Positions 2,212-54,419 of a DNA stretch of 58,680 nt are shown here, piece after piece (the first letter of the stretch is position 1; the number at the start of each line of letters is the position of its first letter). The stretch is from an uncultured virus (IMG/VR IMGVR_UViG_3300027582_000004) (lineage: Duplodnaviria; Heunggongvirae; Uroviricota; Caudoviricetes), in the IMG/VR virus record IMGVR_UViG_3300027582_000004; one strand, given 5' to 3'. The notes below the pieces were generated by a model. That model was not told the origin of the DNA. It saw only the letters and a program-made list of their open reading frames with translations, and did not search any database. Both the position numbers and the translations under genes were made by a program.

Positions 2212-2282
2212 CATATATGTAACACTTTTGGAGAAACTTTCTCCATAAACTAATTTAGACTGATCTTTGGTCTAAATAAAAT

Positions 2283-2344
2283 GTAAACGATGAAGCAACG
2301 TGAACACATACTGGACTGGGGGGCAGTACCCCACAGCTCCACCA
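2283..2344 (+). ncRNA. ssrA: permuted tmRNA, upstream segment carrying the T-arm and the CCA-ending acceptor strand
   Basis: T-arm tgggg-GGCAGTA-cccca then CAGCTCC-A-CCA, complementary to GGGGCTG at 2462 with the G3.U70 alanine identity pair; 5' boundary approximate. Confidence 0.9.
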
Positions 2345-2364
2345 AAATCACTTAGGAGATTACA

Positions 2365-2454
2365 ATGATTAAATGGATTATTAATTCGTATAACAATTGG
2401 ATGGCTAAGAAAGAAGCAGAGGTACCAAAATACCTAGCTGGTACTGGTGAGTGA
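2365..2454 (+). CDS. 29-aa micro-ORF inside the tmRNA intervening segment (MIKWIINSYNNWMAKKEAEVPKYLAGTGE)
   Basis: AGGAG SD at 2354-2358, ATG 2365, TGA 2452-2454; absent from the ORF track. Confidence 0.55.
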   Translation: MIKWIINSYNNWMAKKEAEVPKYLAGTGE

Positions 2455-2461
2455 TTTTGAT

Positions 2462-2625
2462 GGGGCTGAACTAGGATCGACAGGTGTCGTAGTGAAGTGG
2501 AGTTTACCGGATGATCGCGTATAGATCAACTAAACTAAATGCAAATGAAAATTTCGCACCATCTGGTTACGCCCTAGCGGCATAACACAGGGAGCTGGCC
2601 ACTTGCTTAGCAACAGAAAAGTGGC
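2462..2625 (+). ncRNA. ssrA: permuted tmRNA, downstream segment with tag reading frame ANENFAPSGYALAA*
   Basis: GGGGCTGAACTAGGATCGAC start, resume codon GCA at 2541, stop 2583-2585, following hairpin gccactt...aagtggc. Confidence 0.9.
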
Positions 2626-2656
2626 ATTAACTATTCATCAATATAAGGAAATTAAG

Positions 2657-3025
2657 ATGAAAATTGCACTAACAGCAGCAGCCCTAGTATTGGCTGCATC
2701 TACAGCATCTGCTGGAGACCTAAACATTGGTGGCCAAACTATTTCAGCCGGCGGTGAATTTGATATGAACTATACAACTGGTACCGAACTGTGGGCTTTG
2801 GATTTTACTCCTAAGGCAGGTCTTAACGCCTTCGGTGTAGATTTCTCAGTAGATACAACATTTGATGTTCTATCTTTGAATGATGCATCTAAAGACGCAT
2901 TTACTGGTCTTGACTTTGTAGCTGGTTATACACTAGGTGGCGGTCTTCGTACTTACACTGAAGTTAGCACAAACTCAGACCTAGAATTTGGTGATGTGAC
3001 TATGGGCGCAACATTTAACTTCTAA
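2657..3025 (+). CDS. small exported porin-like/outer-membrane beta protein
   Basis: SD AAGGA, signal peptide MKIALTAAALVLAASTASA, alternating beta pattern, C-terminal ...MGATFNF (terminal Phe typical of OM barrels). Confidence 0.7.
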   Translation: MKIALTAAALVLAASTASAGDLNIGGQTISAGGEFDMNYTTGTELWALDFTPKAGLNAFGVDFSVDTTFDVLSLNDASKDAFTGLDFVAGYTLGGGLRTYTEVSTNSDLEFGDVTMGATFNF

Positions 3026-3062: not shown

Positions 3063-3091
3063 GAGGAGCCATGGTTAGCTCCTCTTTTTTT
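3063..3091 (+). terminator. Rho-independent terminator
   Basis: gaggagc-catggtta-gctcctc followed by a T run. Confidence 0.8.
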
Positions 3092-3120: not shown

Positions 3121-3759
3121 ATGATTCTTTTTATTTCTGTCGTACTAGGGCTTTTGTGGTCACAAGTTATATCACACTTTGGTGCGTCAATACTATTACA
3201 TAGACATTATTGCCATAAACAATTTGAGGTACCTAAATGGTTTGAAGCCCTAGGTCTTTCAATGTTAATGGTCGCTTGTATTAGAACACCTATTGGTTGG
3301 ATTGCTTCTCATAGAATGCATCATAAACATTCTGATAGTGAAAAAGATCCACATTCTTGGAAGCATGTAGGATACTGGAAAGTTTTATTTACGACTTGGA
3401 ATATAAGAAAAATATCTCCAAAATATTCTCGTGACTTGTTTAAGAACCCTATGTTGGTATTTTGTCACCACCACTGGTTAAAAATTCTTATCATTACAAA
3501 TATAGTATCATTTATAATAAGCCCATACTTTTGGCTTGCTTTCTGTGCAATACCATTTGTATTTGCAAAAGTAGGATTTGGTTTATTAAATACTGTTGGT
3601 CATAATGAAGAAGGTGGTAGTGATGTCGCATGGCTAAATCTTTTTATTGCAGGTGAAGGTTATCATAGACAACATCATCTTAATTGGAAACAAGTCAGAT
3701 TGCATAAGTGGGATACAGCAGGTTGGATTGCTGAAAAATTATTTGTTAAAGGAAAGTAG
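3121..3759 (+). CDS. membrane fatty acid (acyl-lipid, delta-9 type) desaturase
   Basis: His boxes HRHYCH, HRMHH, EGYHRQHH; hydrophobic segments. Confidence 0.9.
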   Translation: MILFISVVLGLLWSQVISHFGASILLHRHYCHKQFEVPKWFEALGLSMLMVACIRTPIGWIASHRMHHKHSDSEKDPHSWKHVGYWKVLFTTWNIRKISPKYSRDLFKNPMLVFCHHHWLKILIITNIVSFIISPYFWLAFCAIPFVFAKVGFGLLNTVGHNEEGGSDVAWLNLFIAGEGYHRQHHLNWKQVRLHKWDTAGWIAEKLFVKGK

Positions 3760-4362
3760 ATGAAGAAAACTCAATTACCATCCATAATGAAACTAAATGT
3801 TAATATAGATTTAGATTTACTTAGAGATAATTGTAACACCCTTGCTGAAAAGTTTGTTGATGTAAGAACAGCAAATCCAGGGCTTTGTATGAATCATGAA
3901 GACCTTGTAAAAGATGTTTACGATAACTTCGAACAGATCAATCTTACAACACCATCAGAGATACTACCTCACACAACATCTATTAAGGAACGCTTGAGAC
4001 GCAGAGAAGAACATTTATATAATGTAGCAACCGAGGATTATACTGGTAGTTATATTGAAAAGATAGTTACACAGTGTAAAGCACCAGCATCTCGTATTCG
4101 TATTACTAAACTTGCACCAGGTAAAACTATTCCATTCCATGTGGACTATGATGTATCCTATGCGGTACGTTGTATTGTACCCATCTATGGTGATAATAAC
4201 ACTGTTAATCTGTTTAGACGAGACAATAAGGTTGAGGCATATAACCTTAAGTGTGGAACTGCCTATTTTTTAAACATCGGCTATCCCCATGCAGTAGTTA
4301 ACATGAGCGACAAACCACGAATTGCTTTAATGTTTAGTTTGGATGGTACAGATGACTTGTGA
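3760..4362 (+). CDS. Asp/Asn beta-hydroxylase-like Fe(II)/2OG oxygenase
   Basis: RIRITKLAPGKTIPFHVD...PHAVVNMSDKPRIAL (HxD...H, R). Confidence 0.8.
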   Translation: MKKTQLPSIMKLNVNIDLDLLRDNCNTLAEKFVDVRTANPGLCMNHEDLVKDVYDNFEQINLTTPSEILPHTTSIKERLRRREEHLYNVATEDYTGSYIEKIVTQCKAPASRIRITKLAPGKTIPFHVDYDVSYAVRCIVPIYGDNNTVNLFRRDNKVEAYNLKCGTAYFLNIGYPHAVVNMSDKPRIALMFSLDGTDDL

Positions 4363-5140
4363 TAGTAAACAGTATTATAACAAGTCACACCTTTGGCCTA
4401 TTGCACGTGAAGTACAAATAAAGGGTCACAAGATATTCTACGATCAAGAGTTTACTGAACAATCTTACATTGATTATATGAAAGGCTTTGGAGAACTTGA
4501 ACGACATGAGTTGTTTATGAATTCAAAGGAAGTGCCAGAACTATTTTATGTTACTGATAAACGAGATGAGTCTGGACAGAAAATTGGTATGTTCGGTGGT
4601 GGCGAATTAGGCTGGCACTCTAATGGTAATAGCAGGCACAAAATAGATAAGATATTAATCAGCCTTTATTGTGTAGAAGGTGATCCTAATACTACATTAT
4701 CTATATGTAATACCTCAGATCCTTTCTATGACTTGTCTGAAGAGGATCAGGAATACTTTAAGAATATAGTGATTAGGCTTAAATTTAAAAATAATACAAT
4801 GTATGAGTTAGATGATAACGATCCAGAACTTGAGTTTATGAGTAAGAACAAAGGTTCTATTCGACCGCTAGTCGGTAGACATCCTCATACAGATAAGTAT
4901 TATTTTTATTTTCCCTACCATTTTATTTGTAGAGCATGGCATGGGAAAACTCGCATAGATCATAATGAGCTTATTGAAAGATTAAAACCCATTATCTTTC
5001 AGAGCAAATATCAGACACATCATATCTTCCAAAAAGGTGATATGCTTCTAATGGATCAATTGACTTCTCTGCACAGACGAACACCTGTGATGGGAGACCG
5101 TATGTTATGGAGAGCTGCAGGTGACTATTCGAAAATCTGA
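4343..5140 (+). CDS. TauD/TfdA-family dioxygenase with HxN motif
   Basis: WHSNG, PLVGRHP, GDMLLMDQLTSLHRR, RMLWR. Confidence 0.8.
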   Translation: MVQMTCDSKQYYNKSHLWPIAREVQIKGHKIFYDQEFTEQSYIDYMKGFGELERHELFMNSKEVPELFYVTDKRDESGQKIGMFGGGELGWHSNGNSRHKIDKILISLYCVEGDPNTTLSICNTSDPFYDLSEEDQEYFKNIVIRLKFKNNTMYELDDNDPELEFMSKNKGSIRPLVGRHPHTDKYYFYFPYHFICRAWHGKTRIDHNELIERLKPIIFQSKYQTHHIFQKGDMLLMDQLTSLHRRTPVMGDRMLWRAAGDYSKI

Positions 5141-6029
5141 ATTAAGAAACTTTCCATATGTAAATGTACCTAGGTTTAAGTCTGTAGAAATATTACTGTT
5201 GGCTCAGACAGCGGCAGATACATATTTTAGCAGAGGTTCTGGGCAAGCAACAAAAGAACTAGATCACGTTGAGGCTACACATAGGCATTGGGTAAGCTCT
5301 ATGATTGATCTATCAGATTTTCCATATTGTTATTATACTCACGGTGTTACTGATGCCATACATCATTGGGAAATGACAGATAAAAGACCATGGCAGAAAT
5401 TATGTTATGGCGAATATGAATATAGAGATATAATAGGTTCTAAAGGATCCGTTACTTGTGATGTGCCAGGGCAGTACATGGATAAAGAAACTCACAGAGC
5501 TGCACTACCTGGTGTAGTTGATCCTAATAAGCCTTTATATATCTCAACACCTTCTGCGGCAGATGGTAATATATTTAACGCTCCTGTTGATAGTTGGAAA
5601 AACTCACCACCAGTTATATTAGATTGTACTTATGTATCATCCACTGCTATTAAAACAATAGAAGTACCTAAGACAACTGAGCAAGTGTTCTTTTCTTTCT
5701 CTAAAGGTTTTGGTCTTATTGGTAGTAGATTAGGATTAGTCTATACTAAAGAACCACACCCTACTCTACATAGATTAAAAGAATATGAGAACTGGAATTA
5801 TAGTGGTGTAAGAACGATGCAGCTTCTAATGAATAACTTTGCTGTAGATTCCATGCATACAAAATATAAAGATAAGCAACTTGCCATTTGTAAAGAATAC
5901 GATTTTACACCTTCTGATTGCTTTTACCTTGCAACTACACATGATAGATACTATACAAGACGCAGACGAATGCGTTGGAATGATTCTGCTAGAATATGCT
6001 TAACACCTTTATTTGAGGATTACTTATGA
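5121..6029 (+). CDS. PLP-dependent enzyme, aminotransferase class I/II-like
   Basis: VILDCTY and FSFSKGFGLIGSRLG (Schiff-base Lys motif). Confidence 0.75.
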   Translation: MTIRKSELRNFPYVNVPRFKSVEILLLAQTAADTYFSRGSGQATKELDHVEATHRHWVSSMIDLSDFPYCYYTHGVTDAIHHWEMTDKRPWQKLCYGEYEYRDIIGSKGSVTCDVPGQYMDKETHRAALPGVVDPNKPLYISTPSAADGNIFNAPVDSWKNSPPVILDCTYVSSTAIKTIEVPKTTEQVFFSFSKGFGLIGSRLGLVYTKEPHPTLHRLKEYENWNYSGVRTMQLLMNNFAVDSMHTKYKDKQLAICKEYDFTPSDCFYLATTHDRYYTRRRRMRWNDSARICLTPLFEDYL

Positions 6030-7492
6030 CTAAACAATTGATGGATTATACACAGGTAGAGCTTGAGCAATTAACTCAAAAGATTTTAGAGAATGGTCAT
6101 GCGGTTTTACATGATCAAGATTTAACAAGACAACAACTTGTAGAAACTTGTAGTCGTTTTGGAGAAATTGAAGAATTGGATTATTTTATGAATCCAAAGG
6201 ATAGCCCTCAGATAAGTATTGTGTCAGGTAAGGTTGTCGATGGTAAAGCATTAGGCATGTTTGGACCTACTGAGCTTGAATGGCATGCCAATGGTACTGG
6301 TAGATATAACTTTGATGAAATTTGTGTAGGATTATATTGCGTAGAAGAATGTATTGATACAGTACTGTCGTTGGTAGATCAGTGTAGAGCGTTTGAAGAA
6401 CTACCAGAGAAAGAAAAAGAGTATTATCGAGCTATTGATATTCATCTTGATAATTCTGGACCACGTGCCAGAATATGGAGAAATGATGGAGAGTATTCAA
6501 AAGCATATAAAAACCAAGGTGAACAAAATTTTAGAATTGGTCAAGAACACTACAAAGAAAAGTTGGATCGTAGACCTTTAGTTGCAAAGCATCCAGTGTC
6601 TGGTCGTGAATACTTTTATCCTATGTTTATTTACTTAACAAAAGCATGGCATAATGGTGTAGAGATAGAGGACTTTGAACACTTCTATGAAATTTTAAAT
6701 AGTAAAATTACCAGATCAAAATATATGAGCCACCATGTGTTTAGAAAAGGCGATCTACTCTTTATGGATCAGCTCACTACAAGTCATAGAAGGTCTGCTG
6801 TTAAGAATAAAGACAGACAACTATGGAGAACAGCATTTGATTATAAGAAAACATCAAAGCAGATACCATGGCCAGAGATTAAAACAAAAATAGAGAATGG
6901 TCAGAAAGTGCCTCTGAAGGAAGATTATGAATTTAGTGATATGGCTTATCTTGATTCACCAGAAGCATATGAGCTATTTGAAACTCAAGCAAATATTATT
7001 ATAGAAAAACAGTGTAAAGGTATTGTTGATGTTGGCTGTAGACATGGACCAGTATTAGATATATTACACTCAAAGGGCTATACTGATTTTGAGTATATGG
7101 GATTTGATACTTCTAAAGAGCCTATTGATATAGCAACAGAAAAGTGGAAAGATCATAGTAATATAGAATTTAGATGTGAGAGTTGGAATGATCCAGACTG
7201 TTTCTTTGTTGACTTTGATGTAGATCAAGTGATATGGAGCGGTGTATTACTATACAGACCAGATGATCACTTTGAGTTCTTTGATAAGATTACAAATAAA
7301 TTATACTCAAGCCCTAATGCTATCATACAAGAACCTATGCCATGGCAAAGACACTGGAAAGCTGGTCTTATTCTAAACACTATTGCAGATAGTATGGAAG
7401 AATATAAAGATGCATATAAAGAATTTAAAGAATATAAACTCGACCTTGATATATTTGCTGGTCGCAGATTAGTTGCGGATGTTACATTATGA
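6026..7492 (+). CDS. TauD-family dioxygenase fused to a class I SAM methyltransferase
   Basis: N-terminal WHANG...GDLLFMDQLTTSHRR...RQLWR; C-terminal IVDVGCRHG, YMGFD, WSGVLLY. Confidence 0.8.
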   Translation: MTKQLMDYTQVELEQLTQKILENGHAVLHDQDLTRQQLVETCSRFGEIEELDYFMNPKDSPQISIVSGKVVDGKALGMFGPTELEWHANGTGRYNFDEICVGLYCVEECIDTVLSLVDQCRAFEELPEKEKEYYRAIDIHLDNSGPRARIWRNDGEYSKAYKNQGEQNFRIGQEHYKEKLDRRPLVAKHPVSGREYFYPMFIYLTKAWHNGVEIEDFEHFYEILNSKITRSKYMSHHVFRKGDLLFMDQLTTSHRRSAVKNKDRQLWRTAFDYKKTSKQIPWPEIKTKIENGQKVPLKEDYEFSDMAYLDSPEAYELFETQANIIIEKQCKGIVDVGCRHGPVLDILHSKGYTDFEYMGFDTSKEPIDIATEKWKDHSNIEFRCESWNDPDCFFVDFDVDQVIWSGVLLYRPDDHFEFFDKITNKLYSSPNAIIQEPMPWQRHWKAGLILNTIADSMEEYKDAYKEFKEYKLDLDIFAGRRLVADVTL

Positions 7493-8073
7493 TATTAGCA
7501 CTCAGTACCTCACAAGCATCTAACAGTCTCAACTACAGAGGGCTAAAACTACTCAGCTGTGATTTTGATAGAATAGATTGCTTGGCTGACTATGATATAC
7601 CTGTAGTAAATGTTAATGGTATGGACGCAGATATACCTAAAGATGTTGCTGCTTTATTTCTTATGATGCATCAGTTTGATAAGTTTGTGTTTGCAATACC
7701 AGAGTTTACTGGAATGATGAGTTCAAGTACAAAGAACCTATTAGACTGGGCTGTTGTAATATCAAATATGAATTTAGATCATGGTAAAGGATACCCTTGG
7801 ACTGATAAACACGTCATACTTCTCACCTTTACTCCGAGTGGAAAAGAAGGTGGTGGCAGACATATGGAACAGACTAAAGATATATTTAAAAAACTTGGTG
7901 CAAATGTTGTATATACAGATGTATCTACATATGGTTGGCAGCATGTTATACCAGATAACCAAGAACACTTTACTGAGATGTCTGATAAGATAAACAACTA
8001 TCTACTATATAAAGCAGATAATAAAGAGTATTTTAAAAACAAATATAATGATTGGAATGAAAAATGGGATTAG
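7489..8073 (+). CDS. NAD(P)H-dependent FMN reductase (flavodoxin fold)
   Basis: FAIPEFTGMMSSSTKNLLDW, TPSGKEGG. Confidence 0.8.
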   Translation: MILALSTSQASNSLNYRGLKLLSCDFDRIDCLADYDIPVVNVNGMDADIPKDVAALFLMMHQFDKFVFAIPEFTGMMSSSTKNLLDWAVVISNMNLDHGKGYPWTDKHVILLTFTPSGKEGGGRHMEQTKDIFKKLGANVVYTDVSTYGWQHVIPDNQEHFTEMSDKINNYLLYKADNKEYFKNKYNDWNEKWD

Positions 8074-8468
8074 AAACTAAAGGTTTGTACATACTTAAAG
8101 ATGATGATTATGTACCTTATAATTTACCAATGGGTAAAGTGATTTTATGTGGTGTGCCTGGAGCATTTACACCAGGCTGCACTAAAAGACATCTGCCAGG
8201 ATTTGCAAAGAATTTAGACAAGTTAGATGCTAAGGTTGTGTTTGTTGCGGTTAATGATCCGAGTGTCATGCATGCATGGAATGTATTATATGGTCATCCT
8301 CACATTGATGCAGTCGCAGATCCATTAGCTGTATTCAGTAAATATATGGGTAAGGATGTTGACTTTGGTGATTATATGGGTATTAGATGTAAACGATATG
8401 CTATGCTTATAGAGGATGGTGTATTTGTAAAAGAATATGCAGATCCGTTTATTGAAGGTGTATTATGA
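8064..8468 (+). CDS. peroxiredoxin (Prx5/type II redoxin)
   Basis: VPGAFTPGCTKRHLPG, VAVNDPSVMHAW, RCKRYAMLIEDG. Confidence 0.9.
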   Translation: MGLETKGLYILKDDDYVPYNLPMGKVILCGVPGAFTPGCTKRHLPGFAKNLDKLDAKVVFVAVNDPSVMHAWNVLYGHPHIDAVADPLAVFSKYMGKDVDFGDYMGIRCKRYAMLIEDGVFVKEYADPFIEGVL

Positions 8469-9609: not shown

Positions 9610-10160
9610 GAATAGTTCCGTATATAAAAGATTCAAAGCCTACTTATGAGGAACCAGATCAATGCCATGATGCCTTTCTGCAACTACAGGTAGAGAAAGA
9701 CACTGATAGATTATCAGACAACTATTCTTATAAAAATTTAAACTTAGATAGAATGGTAATGTTTAACTTTGTATTTGATGGAAACAATCCAGTTTTATGT
9801 TCAGGTTGCGAGACCATATATCCTGGTGTTGTAAGAGTTATGTCTAGGTATTACCATTATAAAAATTATAGAACAGATGGTACGTCTATGTTTGAGAAGG
9901 TGGATAACTTTAAAGAGCTAAATTACTGTGTCGACAACCTTGATGCTCCTCTTATAATTTGGACACGTGAATTCAGTAAAGGTTTCTTTACTAAACTCAA
10001 AAGAGCACGCCCTGATATATTTGAAGATTGGCAAGTGTATCCAGATAAACTACAGATAGGAAGCCCACCTTTAAAGAAAGCAAATAATCTACAGTATGTA
10101 TTTTATAAAGGCGATATTAACTATCTACGCAACCCACAATATGAAGACGGTACTCCATAG
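9606..10160 (+). CDS. hypothetical protein, possibly GNAT-like fold
   Basis: GTGA overlap with the upstream stop; VVRVMSRYY and LIIWTRE weakly suggest an acyltransferase fold. Confidence 0.4.
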   Translation: MRIVPYIKDSKPTYEEPDQCHDAFLQLQVEKDTDRLSDNYSYKNLNLDRMVMFNFVFDGNNPVLCSGCETIYPGVVRVMSRYYHYKNYRTDGTSMFEKVDNFKELNYCVDNLDAPLIIWTREFSKGFFTKLKRARPDIFEDWQVYPDKLQIGSPPLKKANNLQYVFYKGDINYLRNPQYEDGTP

Positions 10161-10554
10161 AAGCATTTACAAATGTATGTTTCTTTCTGGTGTCGACTAG
10201 ATAGTGAGAACCATCTGCCGGATACCTGCTCACAACATCATCTATAACAAAAAAGTTATTCTCGTTAGTAAGTAATGGTATATGCATTCTTTGAGTAGGG
10301 TCACGGTGATATGTGTAGCATGACTTAGGTGCTAACTTCATAAGCCTCGATCTATACATTCCTAATGAATCTAATACAGAATTGGTATATGGCAGATCAT
10401 ATGCATATACATTAAAATCTTGTTCTGTATTAACAAGTTTAGTCAGACGACCTTCCCCACCAACATTATCTTTTGTAACCTGTAAGGACAATTGTTCTTC
10501 ATACTCAGGTAAGCCCTGTAGTTCTAATAGTATATGTTCTATGTCTATGCGCAT
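10117..10554 (-). CDS. Asp/Asn beta-hydroxylase-like Fe(II)/2OG oxygenase
   Basis: RSRLMKLAPKSCYTYHRD...RMHIPL...HTFVN...RLHIV; likely start MRIDIEH. Confidence 0.75.
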   Translation of the reverse strand: MRIDIEHILLELQGLPEYEEQLSLQVTKDNVGGEGRLTKLVNTEQDFNVYAYDLPYTNSVLDSLGMYRSRLMKLAPKSCYTYHRDPTQRMHIPLLTNENNFFVIDDVVSRYPADGSHYLVDTRKKHTFVNASMEYRLHIVGCVDS

Positions 10555-10967
10555 ACTGTTAATTCTTTCACATTGTATTCTTGAATAAGAACCCATTCGA
10601 TAACATCTATCACATAATCTAAAGGCATCTTTTCAACATCTTTATGTGCTGATCTTTCAGTATCAAAGTAACCAAAGTTCAGACACGTTGTTTTCTTACC
10701 AGCTATGAACAACTGGTTATTAGCTTCTCGCAAGGCTCTTTTCTCTACAGCATATTTGTGTAGATATGTAAAATCACTTGCGTGAGATCCTATGTTAATG
10801 ATACGTTTATTAAGAGCTGCTGCTTTGTATAGCATATCTACTTGTTCAAAGCCATCATGTTTACAATTAATGAATATATCGCATTCTTCTAATGTAGATA
10901 CAGTATCATATTTTTGTTTTAATGCTTCACCTAGACCTCGTCTAGTACCAGTAATATAAAATTTCAT
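10545..10967 (-). CDS. minimal short-chain dehydrogenase/reductase
   Basis: ITGTRRGLG, IINIGS, YAVEK (YxxxK). Confidence 0.75.
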   Translation of the reverse strand: MKFYITGTRRGLGEALKQKYDTVSTLEECDIFINCKHDGFEQVDMLYKAAALNKRIINIGSHASDFTYLHKYAVEKRALREANNQLFIAGKKTTCLNFGYFDTERSAHKDVEKMPLDYVIDVIEWVLIQEYNVKELTVCA

Positions 10968-25548: not shown

Positions 25549-26001
25549 ATGTGGCTATTTGAAGAAGAAAATTTTAATCCCACCCCGGAGGCATTAGCCA
25601 CTTGGGTGGGATTTGTATATGAAGTGAATGATACCGCTAACGGGAAAAAGTATATAGGCAAAAAAGGCTTCTGGTCTACACGTCGGTTGCAACCGTTAAA
25701 GGGTAAGAAAAGAAAAAGAGTAGTAAAGAAGGAATCTGATTGGAAGACATACTATGGTTCTAACGAGGAAATAAAGTTACTCGTTGAGGCGTCTGATCCA
25801 GAACGGTGGGAGAGGCGTATACTTAGATTATGTACGTCCAAAGGAGAAATGAGTTATTATGAAGCAAAGGAGCAGATTGAAAGAAATGTTCTCTTTGACG
25901 ATTCATACTATAATGAATTTATTGGTTTAAAAATCCATGCCAAACACGTTGGCCACCTAAAGGAGAAATTTATTGACGAACGGGACAAAGAGACAGAATG
26001 A
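25549..26001 (+). CDS. GIY-YIG nuclease (endonuclease II/Seg-like, catalytic domain only)
   Basis: GFVY...KKYIGKK...WKTYYGS...E...YYN; TATAAATA at 25512. Confidence 0.8.
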   Translation: MWLFEEENFNPTPEALATWVGFVYEVNDTANGKKYIGKKGFWSTRRLQPLKGKKRKRVVKKESDWKTYYGSNEEIKLLVEASDPERWERRILRLCTSKGEMSYYEAKEQIERNVLFDDSYYNEFIGLKIHAKHVGHLKEKFIDERDKETE

Positions 26002-38959: not shown

Positions 38960-39036
38960 GGATACGTAGCTCAGCAGGATAGAGCAAGTGCCTTCTAAGC
39001 ACTAGGTCAGAGGTTCGAATCCTCTCGTATTCGCCA
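38960..39036 (+). tRNA. tRNA-Arg(UCU)
   Basis: Cloverleaf: GGATACG/CGTATTC acceptor, agtgc-CTTCTAA-gcact anticodon arm, GGTTCGAATCC, encoded CCA. Confidence 0.95.
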
Positions 39037-39416: not shown

Positions 39417-39493
<77 letters not shown>

Positions 39494-45956: not shown

Positions 45957-46075
45957 CATTATTGTAACACTTTTGCTGTTTTTGAAATTAATTTAAAAAA
46001 AGTTAAATTAGTTGTTTACATCTGGTATTAGATGTGTTATAAGAGTTATAGAAACAATAATTAAGGAACTACATT
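45952..46075 (+). promoter_or_regulatory. TGT-N12-ACA box plus early promoter cassette
   Basis: tgtaacattattgtaaca; TTTACA(46015)-N17-TATAAG-agttatagaaacaataattaagga. Confidence 0.85.
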
Positions 46076-46315
46076 ATGTCAAAGATTATCACAGCATTAA
46101 ATAACTCAATCCGTAACGCAATCGTTAACCCAGAAAATTTAGATATCGATGGTAAGATCATCTGGAATTTTGTAGATGCTGATGCTTACCACGAGTGCTT
46201 TAAGTTTTATGCAAGCACAGAAGGCTTCTATAAAGACTTCGATAAAATCGCTCTTGAAATTCGTGCAGAGTTGCAAGAAGAAACTATGTCTAACAATTTT
46301 AGACCTCAAGTATAA
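46076..46315 (+). CDS. early hypothetical protein
   Basis: NPEN...IIWNFVDADAY. Confidence 0.75.
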   Translation: MSKIITALNNSIRNAIVNPENLDIDGKIIWNFVDADAYHECFKFYASTEGFYKDFDKIALEIRAELQEETMSNNFRPQV

Positions 46316-46343
46316 AAAACTTTTAAAAAGGCGATAATAATAC

Positions 46344-46372
46344 TTTACATCGCCTTTCTTATATGCTATACT
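46344..46372 (+). promoter_or_regulatory. early promoter
   Basis: TTTACA-N17-TATACT; inverted repeat aaaggcgat/atcgccttt around the -35. Confidence 0.75.
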
Positions 46373-46401
46373 ACTTAAAGAAACAACATTGGAGATTACA
46401 T

Positions 46402-46671
46402 ATGACTATGACAGCAACTCAAAAAGCAGATCGTTTGGCCCTAATTAAAAAGATTGGTGATCGCCGTAACAAAATGGCTAAGATCAAAGCCAACTCTGCT
46501 CGCACTATGCAAAATGTAAAGCATACTAATATCAAGCCTAAGCGTAAGTCTGTGGAAGCTCCTAAAGAAACCCACAACATTTATCAGTGGACTGATGCTT
46601 CTAAGTATGCTGCTGAGTATTATGGCGAGACATTGTATCACACAACGAAATTCGATAACGATTGGGATTAA
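46402..46671 (+). CDS. early hypothetical protein
   Basis: SD GGAG before MTMTATQK. Confidence 0.7.
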   Translation: MTMTATQKADRLALIKKIGDRRNKMAKIKANSARTMQNVKHTNIKPKRKSVEAPKETHNIYQWTDASKYAAEYYGETLYHTTKFDNDWD

Positions 46672-53936: not shown

Positions 53937-54419
53937 TCACTTTTTCTTCTTGCGTGAATATGGTTTTAGTTTCTTAGTAGATTTAGGCTTTATGCCCATG
54001 GATTCTAAAGTGTTCTCTGTCCAAATCTGAAAACCCCACCCACGATCTGCTGCGAACGTCTGGGCAGCACTCCACTTGTTCATATTCTTTACATAGGTCA
54101 TACCCTCGGTAATATACCTTTTGGTCTTTCTACCTTTAAATTCTGGTGGTTTGGTTTCTTTTTCTGGTTTAATCTCAATTAGATCAACCTTACCAGTCTT
54201 CCATGTTATCTTTAGATCCATAAAGTACCTATGATACTTCTTATCAACTTCATAGAAGTATGGTATTACTACCTCTTCACTAGACCAGTTCTTAACCATA
54301 GGGTTCTCGTCACACCATTTAAAGCAATGTCTTTCCCACATGGATCTGTAGATTACTTTTGTATGATCACCTTTATACTTTGCTGGGTTTTTTGGTTTAT
54401 ATTTACCAGAGTATGCCAT
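53937..54419 (-). CDS. 4: head completion nuclease gp4
   Basis: MAYSGKYKPKNPAKYKGD, YRSMWE, WSSEE, HRYFMD, IEIKP. Confidence 0.92.
   Translation of the reverse strand: MAYSGKYKPKNPAKYKGDHTKVIYRSMWERHCFKWCDENPMVKNWSSEEVVIPYFYEVDKKYHRYFMDLKITWKTGKVDLIEIKPEKETKPPEFKGRKTKRYITEGMTYVKNMNKWSAAQTFAADRGWGFQIWTENTLESMGIKPKSTKKLKPYSRKKKK

Follow-up and report, generated by a model that had tools for sequence, protein, structure and literature searches.

In permuted genes for transfer-messenger RNA (tmRNA), as found in Alphaproteobacteria and marine myophages, an acceptor piece ending in CCA is followed by an intervening spacer and then by a coding piece, which starts with GGGG and encodes a tag ending in ...ALAA. 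Two-piece tmRNAs are known from phages (PMC9004378), the spacer is absent from the mature two-piece molecule (PMC11915505, Fig. 1 legend) and is treated as non-coding in the accessible sections of this literature; the tmRNA database paper, in the sections accessible, mentions only a tRNA gene in one spacer and a repetitive element in another (PMC11915505). Analysed here was a tmRNA gene of the same order in a 58,680-nt stretch of an uncultured virus (Caudoviricetes; IMG/VR record IMGVR_UViG_3300027582_000004; the whole stretch is called the window below), whose spacer holds a protein gene under selection. The open reading frame (ORF) at 2365–2454 is probably a genuine micro-protein gene that is carried as accessory cargo of the spacer, is translated and acts in trans; its protein-coding status is strongly supported by comparison with related sequences.

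A protein gene in an excised segment of a stable RNA is known in kind; the case of the tmRNA spacer and the micro-protein family appear to be new. The nearest analogue is the intervening sequence of 23S ribosomal RNA that carries the S23p ORF in Coxiella burnetii; according to the abstract of PMC4990558 it is likewise bounded by a stem, excised, horizontally acquired and dispensable for its host RNA. S23p seems not to be produced in vivo, the region upstream of it is decaying and the ORF is under reductive evolution (PMC4990558), whereas the tmRNA-spacer ORF is under purifying selection and its Shine–Dalgarno (SD) sequence is conserved. Three family members searched against Pfam with hmmscan showed no relation to S23p at E ≤ 1. 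Group I introns with homing-endonuclease genes occur inside tmRNA genes and likewise place a protein gene in a part that is cut out of the tmRNA precursor; as described in the available portions of PMC11915505, these introns are self-splicing, lie in the T-loop and carry an ORF that serves intron mobility. The segment in the window, in contrast, is the permutation spacer, has no intron fold (no Rfam match) and encodes a product of 29 amino acids, which is no endonuclease. In the dual-function small RNAs SgrS/SgrT and RNAIII/delta-haemolysin, one transcript is both a functional RNA and the messenger of a micro-protein, and both functions stay in one mature molecule, whereas here the coding part would be the piece removed by maturation. 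Full-text literature searches returned no published description of a protein gene in a permuted-tmRNA spacer, although their coverage did not extend to the first reports on two-piece tmRNAs (Keiler 2000; Sharkady and Williams 2004); this agrees with the initial annotation of the window, which was made from the letters of the sequence and knew of no described case.

The spacer and its gene comprise the following features:

2345–2461, plus strand: intervening spacer of 117 nt, a stem-closed cassette with the micro-gene (sequence, Rfam, folding)
2343–2352, plus strand: left arm of the closing stem, caaaatcact (sequence)
2354–2358, plus strand: SD sequence AGGAG, 6 nt 5' of the ATG (sequence)
2365–2454, plus strand: micro-protein gene, 29 codons and TGA, MIKWIINSYNNWMAKKEAEVPKYLAGTGE (ORF translation, comparative data)
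2450–2459, plus strand: right arm of the closing stem, agtgattttg, which holds the stop codon TGA at 2452–2454 (sequence)

The initial annotation had proposed a protein-coding micro-gene in a 117-nt segment between a CCA end at 2344 and a GGGGCTG start at 2462, closed by an inverted repeat and almost filled by AGGAG and the 29-codon ORF, with the stop in the right arm. This anatomy was confirmed throughout, the two arms being perfect reverse complements over 10 bp, and the proposal of a coding gene was borne out by in-frame purifying selection, by kept SD, start and stop, by indels of whole codons and by free-standing copies. The check it had suggested, ORF conservation and dN/dS in relatives, gave an intact SD and ORF and dN/dS values of 0.24–0.30.

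Relatives were gathered with the exact 32-mer of the T-arm/CCA region (47 viral contigs) and by a peptide-pattern search (17 viral and 37 metagenome loci). The ORF was present in 31 distinct intact nucleotide versions and in one version with a nonsense codon, on marine viral and metagenome contigs. Among 30 distinct 26-codon sequences, 79 of 147 inferred changes fell at third codon positions, and dN/dS, calculated by Fitch parsimony on a FastTree tree and uncorrected for transition/transversion, was 0.24 in the frame of the ORF, compared with 0.85 and 1.65 when the frame was shifted. Restricted to the 18 intact copies that lie in spacers, the calculation gave 0.30 (shifted frames 1.2 and 1.5), and the share of synonymous changes was above the neutral expectation (binomial p 1.3e-8). 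The core VPKYL was encoded by diverse codons (four for Val, three for Pro, two for Lys, two for Tyr and five for Leu). The translation signals were kept as well: GGAG was present 5–9 nt 5' of the ATG in all 20 distinct spacer versions, ATG and stop in 19 of the 20 (exception L092), and the end of the stop codon lay 7 nt 5' of the mature GGGG (G1) in every variant. ORF length varied by whole codons only (27 or 29 codons), and spacers with an intact ORF between GGAG and stop were 109–120 nt long.

In the predicted fold of the spacer (-29 kcal/mol) the closing stem was formed and the SD was unpaired. A structured RNA element, or a neutral filler, with a merely fortuitous open frame is highly improbable. 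The spacer does fold better than its shuffles (z = -2.95), the closing stem covaries (96.7% pairing across 20 variants, two of the pairs showing compensatory change), and open frames are not rare in 117 nt: an ATG ORF of at least 25 codons ending inside the spacer arose in 677 of 20000 dinucleotide shuffles of the interior (3.4%), or in 40 of 20000 when it had to be led by an SD. This explanation is contradicted by the substitution pattern, dN/dS being low in the ORF frame only, and SD, start and stop are conserved, unlike the interior hairpin. The peptide is kept in free-standing copies that have no arms, and over the window spacer Rfam matched nothing but two tmRNA models, in whose alignments it is an insertion. 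The hairpin in question (AGGTA/TACCT, inside the ORF) was considered as a conserved structure and rejected, one of its pairs being broken in 11 of 20 variants.

The family has the consensus MIKWIxTSYxNWxAKKEAxVPKYLxGK with invariant W12 and P21 and an invariant (V/I)PKYLxG tail, measures 27–31 amino acids and was found only in viral and marine metagenome contigs. AlphaFold2, run on the family alignment (mean pLDDT 78), predicted one helix (residues 2–19, pLDDT 85–89) and a low-confidence tail. The N-terminal half had been taken for an amphipathic helix; its hydrophobic moment of 0.22 was reached by 45% of shuffles, and this part of the initial annotation was dropped. A profile search of 1.84 billion protein representatives gave 11 matches at E ≤ 0.001, ten of which start with the family motif. 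Eight of these ten clusters measure 26–34 amino acids, one of 53 amino acids is a call extended upstream through the acceptor piece, and one has 87; the source records name the matches 'hypothetical protein' only. The 87-residue cluster (P0006, one contig) joins the family motif to a Cys-rich C-terminal extension (CPYC...CDEC) with a weak, sub-threshold Pfam match to DUF7351 (E 8.7e-4), and could be a real fusion or a read-through call. Among 185,579 bacterial and archaeal species genomes (one genome each, searched with protein and degenerate DNA patterns) no relatives were found; both scans need exact pattern matches, so distant cellular relatives could be missed. So far the family is phage-only.

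The gene occurs in several genomic contexts. The 32 distinct variants from the peptide searches comprised 21 in spacers, 2 just upstream of a tmRNA gene, 1 chimera and 8 free-standing copies. A less biased scan with the C-terminal motif gave 61 matches, 35 of them family-like micro-ORFs (14 in spacers, 21 elsewhere); the other 26 were partly longer ORF calls, which may hide further distant relatives, and partly unrelated proteins. The spacer-resident gene was seen in tmRNA genes with seven different T-arm/acceptor sequences. In L058 and L078 it immediately precedes a tmRNA gene that has a short spacer of its own, and in G007/L203 the order is tmRNA, a gene for a 262-aa signal-peptide protein, micro-ORF and terminator (also L076/77). 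The gene downstream of the tmRNA in the window was considered as a homologue of this 262-aa gene and rejected, since no homology was detectable (tblastn E 0.37). In L054 (= L188) the ORF stands directly before the tmRNA coding piece, with no acceptor piece upstream; positions 521–771 of this locus match L078 (99.2%) and 682–955 match L081 (97.8%), and this two-part match makes it either a recombinant or an assembly chimera, with the joint inside the ORF that both sequences have. As real recombination and an assembly artefact both explain L054, it was set aside as a separate context.

Away from tmRNA genes, some copies stand in an operon (L060, L087, L090/91, L093-95), where the ATG of the micro-ORF and the stop of an 80-aa gene share a base (TAATG) and a further gene begins 2 nt past the micro-ORF stop. 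Others are free-standing with their own terminator (L098, and a large sub-family of 26 aa, MKW[LI]xxW[FY]KKWLAKKEAxVPKYLGRK). The ORF might be a cis-acting leader or arrest frame, in which the act of translation or the nascent chain in the exit tunnel matters and not the free peptide; the invariant W12 and P21 and the conserved C-terminal block near the stop, which resemble features of arrest peptides such as TnaC, and the short distance to the next gene in the operon point in this direction. We consider it very unlikely, because many free-standing copies lie directly before an intrinsic terminator and have nothing downstream to regulate, and the peptide is conserved across very different downstream contexts.

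The spacer itself is a fast-exchanging, dispensable slot, which in related phages holds a bare hairpin, RNAs or other small genes. Across 45 loci and the window, all with the identical 32-mer, 25 distinct spacers of 25–164 nt were counted, each closed by its own inverted repeat; 12 of the 45 loci and, counted by distinct spacer, 6 of the 25 had an SD with an ATG ORF of at least 27 codons. In L037 the flanks are 96.3% (400 nt) and 95.6% (450 nt) identical to those of the window and the spacer measures 25 nt, so the tmRNA does not need the micro-gene. A second, unrelated family (MNWDWHWISWF[KR]G[TV]PFQWG..., 43–51 aa, with SD and ATG) occupies spacers of many T-arm lineages (viral contigs L103-L141, also L001/L024); its stop lies mostly 13 nt inside the mature tmRNA, the L103 type having its own stop, and it too occurs outside tmRNA genes (L126, L138, L139). 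The G005 record combines a spacer ORF of a third type with a free-standing copy of the window family about 14 kb away.

Several further spacers were recorded. The third candidate spacer gene, in L204 (G005:C1, tmRNA 1369–1635; spacer of 109 nt), reads MDEVLLWQFRQKCVEYICINNYSIYHARLIMMGAK; it is preceded by AAGGAG and 7 nt before the ATG and ends just inside the mature tmRNA. In L070, L073 and L074 (spacer 252 nt) an ORF cassette is followed in tandem by a second stem-closed insert of about 115 nt, the two being joined by GATGG...CAGCTCCATCA, which resembles the remnant of a tmRNA body deleted between tandem genes. Long spacers of 72–164 nt, several of them G+C-rich and hairpin-rich, were found in L005/L038/L014, L027, L006/L044, L008, L011, L012, L036/L046, L039 and L041 and gave no Rfam family at E ≤ 0.05; those of L036/L046 hold a TTG-started frame that runs into the tmRNA. 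Rfam searches of 20 loci with many spacer types gave tmRNA only (E ≤ 0.05); the glutamine riboswitch (RF01739/RF01704) was found neither in these related loci at that threshold nor in the window.

These observations bear on a possible tie to ribosome rescue. The initial annotation had further supposed that tmRNA maturation releases or controls a mini-mRNA and so links a peptide to trans-translation; its coding part stood, and this second part is only hinted at. The peptide might act on SmpB, the tmRNA or the ribosome, or its translation might gate processing by RNase P, a ribosome passing through the right arm transiently unfolding the acceptor stem; in either case peptide output and tmRNA maturation would be coupled. 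The position of the gene inside, just before or at the end of tmRNA units is a hint at such a tie. The stop always lies 7 nt from the processing site, where, from general ribosome geometry, the footprint of a terminating ribosome would cover GGGGCUG. We nevertheless regard the tie as unlikely: the gene is dispensable for the tmRNA, copies lie far from any tmRNA and unrelated inserts fill the same slot. No tmRNA was found within 450–700 nt of free-standing copies (0 of 8 and 0 of 16 in two sets), the micro-gene lies about 14 kb from the tmRNA in G003 and G005, and in an 18.4-kb record with the gene no tmRNA was found. The majority of family-like ORFs in the C-terminal-motif scan stand outside spacers, plain hairpins and unrelated genes share the slot, and a near-identical phage background (L037) does without the gene; tmRNA genes are, moreover, common in this phage group anyway, according to the accessible part of PMC9004378.

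A more specific version, which we hold to be distinctly improbable, takes the spacer for a purpose-built mini-messenger of 117 nt, capped by its stem and freed by RNase P and 3' trimming at CCA, whose peptide acts on the rescue machinery or the ribosome. If it were true, the phage would couple the amount of tmRNA matured to the amount of a modulator peptide, and selection for joint expression with tmRNA would explain why the gene recurs in front of, within and behind tmRNA genes.

For the preferred reading, an accessory micro-protein gene acting in trans, the following course is proposed. The precursor would be transcribed from the tmRNA's own promoter through acceptor piece, spacer and coding piece. 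The spacer would form a self-contained cassette closed by a stem of 9–10 bp, whose loop contains SD and start codon and whose right arm contains the stop codon, 7 nt 5' of the RNase P site; its excision is expected from homology to two-piece tmRNAs. The ORF would be read by ribosomes on the precursor, on the spacer RNA after its excision or on both, and the product would be a peptide of 27–29 residues, with a predicted N-terminal helix (2–19) and the (V/I)PKYLxG tail, that acts in trans. A stable-RNA precursor would thus double as an mRNA, a single molecule on which ribosomes and RNase P might compete.

Of 62 distinct regions upstream of related tmRNA genes, 39 have T[ACT]TAAATA immediately next to the gene, in many cases preceded by TTGACA at a distance of 17 nt. 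Many phage tmRNA genes directly follow such a near-consensus TTGACA-N17-TATAAATA, in which a sigma-70-like promoter and the T4 late motif come together. With a promoter-like site immediately upstream of the tmRNA, the ORF would begin about 80 nt into a dedicated transcript. In metatranscriptome run X2 a 969-nt contig (2150–2510) bridges acceptor piece, ORF and coding piece in a 111-nt variant, and in run X3 the 3' part of the ORF and the coding piece are covered; runs X1 and X4 gave no cover over 2360–2443, their contigs ending at 2350 and 2355, most simply by assembly breaks at the hypervariable spacer. These RNA-library contigs, which come without ends, joints or strand and whose depth is not comparable between contigs, give a hint of transcription across the spacer gene.

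Several points weigh against a translated micro-protein gene. In the L092 spacer, TGG is changed to TGA at codon 12, the invariant W12, and the left arm is altered too; this copy reflects either decay or a sequencing error. The counts of variants are not counts of independent events, since the variants are related and some contigs are the same record in two collections, and the dN/dS values carry the parsimony method and missing correction given with them. The RNA-library contigs are also compatible with DNA carry-over, and both the translation of the ORF and the template on which it takes place are what we infer. The databases gave no known counterpart: three family members matched 0 Pfam families at E ≤ 1 (hmmscan), the best PHROGs match of the window peptide was phrog_35323 (E 0.24) with none for L093 and L061, the ESM Atlas gave no family for the peptide, and a peptide search of the cultured phages in INPHARED (E ≤ 1) found no close copy, only two chance-level matches (E 0.7–0.8).

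The remaining features of the tmRNA region are:

2254–2282, plus strand: promoter-like site, TTTAGA-17-TAAAAT (consensus match only)
2271–2278, plus strand: TCTAAATA within the promoter-like site, one mismatch to the T4-type late motif TATAAATA
2283–2344, plus strand: acceptor piece with T-arm, 3' acceptor-stem strand, discriminator A and CCA (Rfam, ARAGORN)
2462–2628, plus strand: coding piece, including the 5' acceptor strand GGGGCTG (ARAGORN, Rfam)
2541–2585, plus strand: tag reading frame, ANENFAPSGYALAA followed by a stop (ARAGORN)
2657–3025, plus strand: downstream gene of 122 aa with a signal-peptide-like N-terminus, ending in FNF, of no Pfam family
3063–3084, plus strand: terminator-like hairpin with a T run after it, the first such element 3' of the tmRNA

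ARAGORN reported a permuted tmRNA at 2250–2676 with the tag ANENFAPSGYALAA, and the gene, which spans about 2283–2628, was matched by the Rfam models RF04321 (tmRNA_permuted, 104.6 bits, threshold 47) and RF01849 (alpha_tmRNA, 94.5 bits, threshold 50); in both alignments 2345–2461 is an unaligned insertion between ...CUCCACCA and GGGGCUGA. The order is permuted: the T-arm comes first, together with the 3' acceptor strand and CCA, and the 5' acceptor strand GGGG... lies downstream of them. The tag frame has a hydrophobic ...ALAA ending followed by a stop. The acceptor stem was fully paired (100%) in 20 of 20 relatives, with two covarying pairs and an invariant G-U third pair, the mark of alanine charging. 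The downstream 122-aa gene probably belongs to the same transcription unit as the tmRNA, with which it would be co-transcribed. In the nearest record (G001) the tmRNA was unmatched apart from 18 nt, and a DNA search against INPHARED phages gave a T-arm match of 38 nt only. No match to the SmpB family was found among the 94 window ORFs of at least 60 aa.

Of cultured phages, the Methylophilales phage Melnitz (MZ577097.1) has an annotated SsrA at 45984–46436 with no CDS annotated inside. Its 142-nt spacer (L209/L211, ~46076–46220) contains GGAG and ATG and a frame MFKWLSKTRLVVITRDYFRERNRKADAKIPKYLSGT... that runs into the mature tmRNA; its two ends fit the profile of the family (16.4 bits; E 2.5e-7, calculated for one target) and, on this modest evidence, it is a probable distant member of the family. 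An ssrA gene with a glutamine riboswitch has been reported for this OM43 phage (PMC9004378), and in the accessible part of that paper the word 'intervening' does not occur. The riboswitch (RF01739, 52.8 bits) was located immediately 3' of the tmRNA (L211 699–747) and not in the spacer, and no plus-strand gene is annotated for about 250 nt after it. In the Pelagibacter phage HTVC008M the spacer measures 49 nt and contains no ORF. Spacer proteins systematically escape annotation pipelines in which tmRNA genes are masked or ORFs of fewer than 30 codons discarded; the GenBank record of Melnitz annotates none. The family represents a new, abundant micro-protein of ocean myophages, and Melnitz with OM43 strain H5P1 offers a cultured system for its probable relative.

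Gene content and gp32 relatedness identify the window as part of the genome of an uncultured T4-like myophage from the sea. Its genes include those for gp32, baseplate proteins, gp5 lysozyme, RNase H, ribonucleotide reductase (RNR), PhoH and ThyX, and its gp32 shares ~54–57% identity with the gp32 proteins of Melnitz, HTVC008M, phage C48C1 and cyanomyophages. It further contains two tRNA genes (Arg-TCT and Pro-TGG; 38960–39036 and 39417–39493) and a cluster of 2-oxoglutarate-type oxygenase genes (3760–7489 and 10120–10596; two Asp/Arg hydroxylase-like and two TauD-like, one of the latter fused to a methyltransferase), which adjoins a fatty-acid-desaturase-like gene (3121–3756) and genes for an FMN reductase and a redoxin (7489–8465). 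A gene for a SegE-type GIY-YIG endonuclease follows the RNR genes (25549–25998), and a gene surrounded by those for the baseplate encodes a TnsA-like endonuclease N-terminal domain (53940–54419); both are probably mobile or homing elements.

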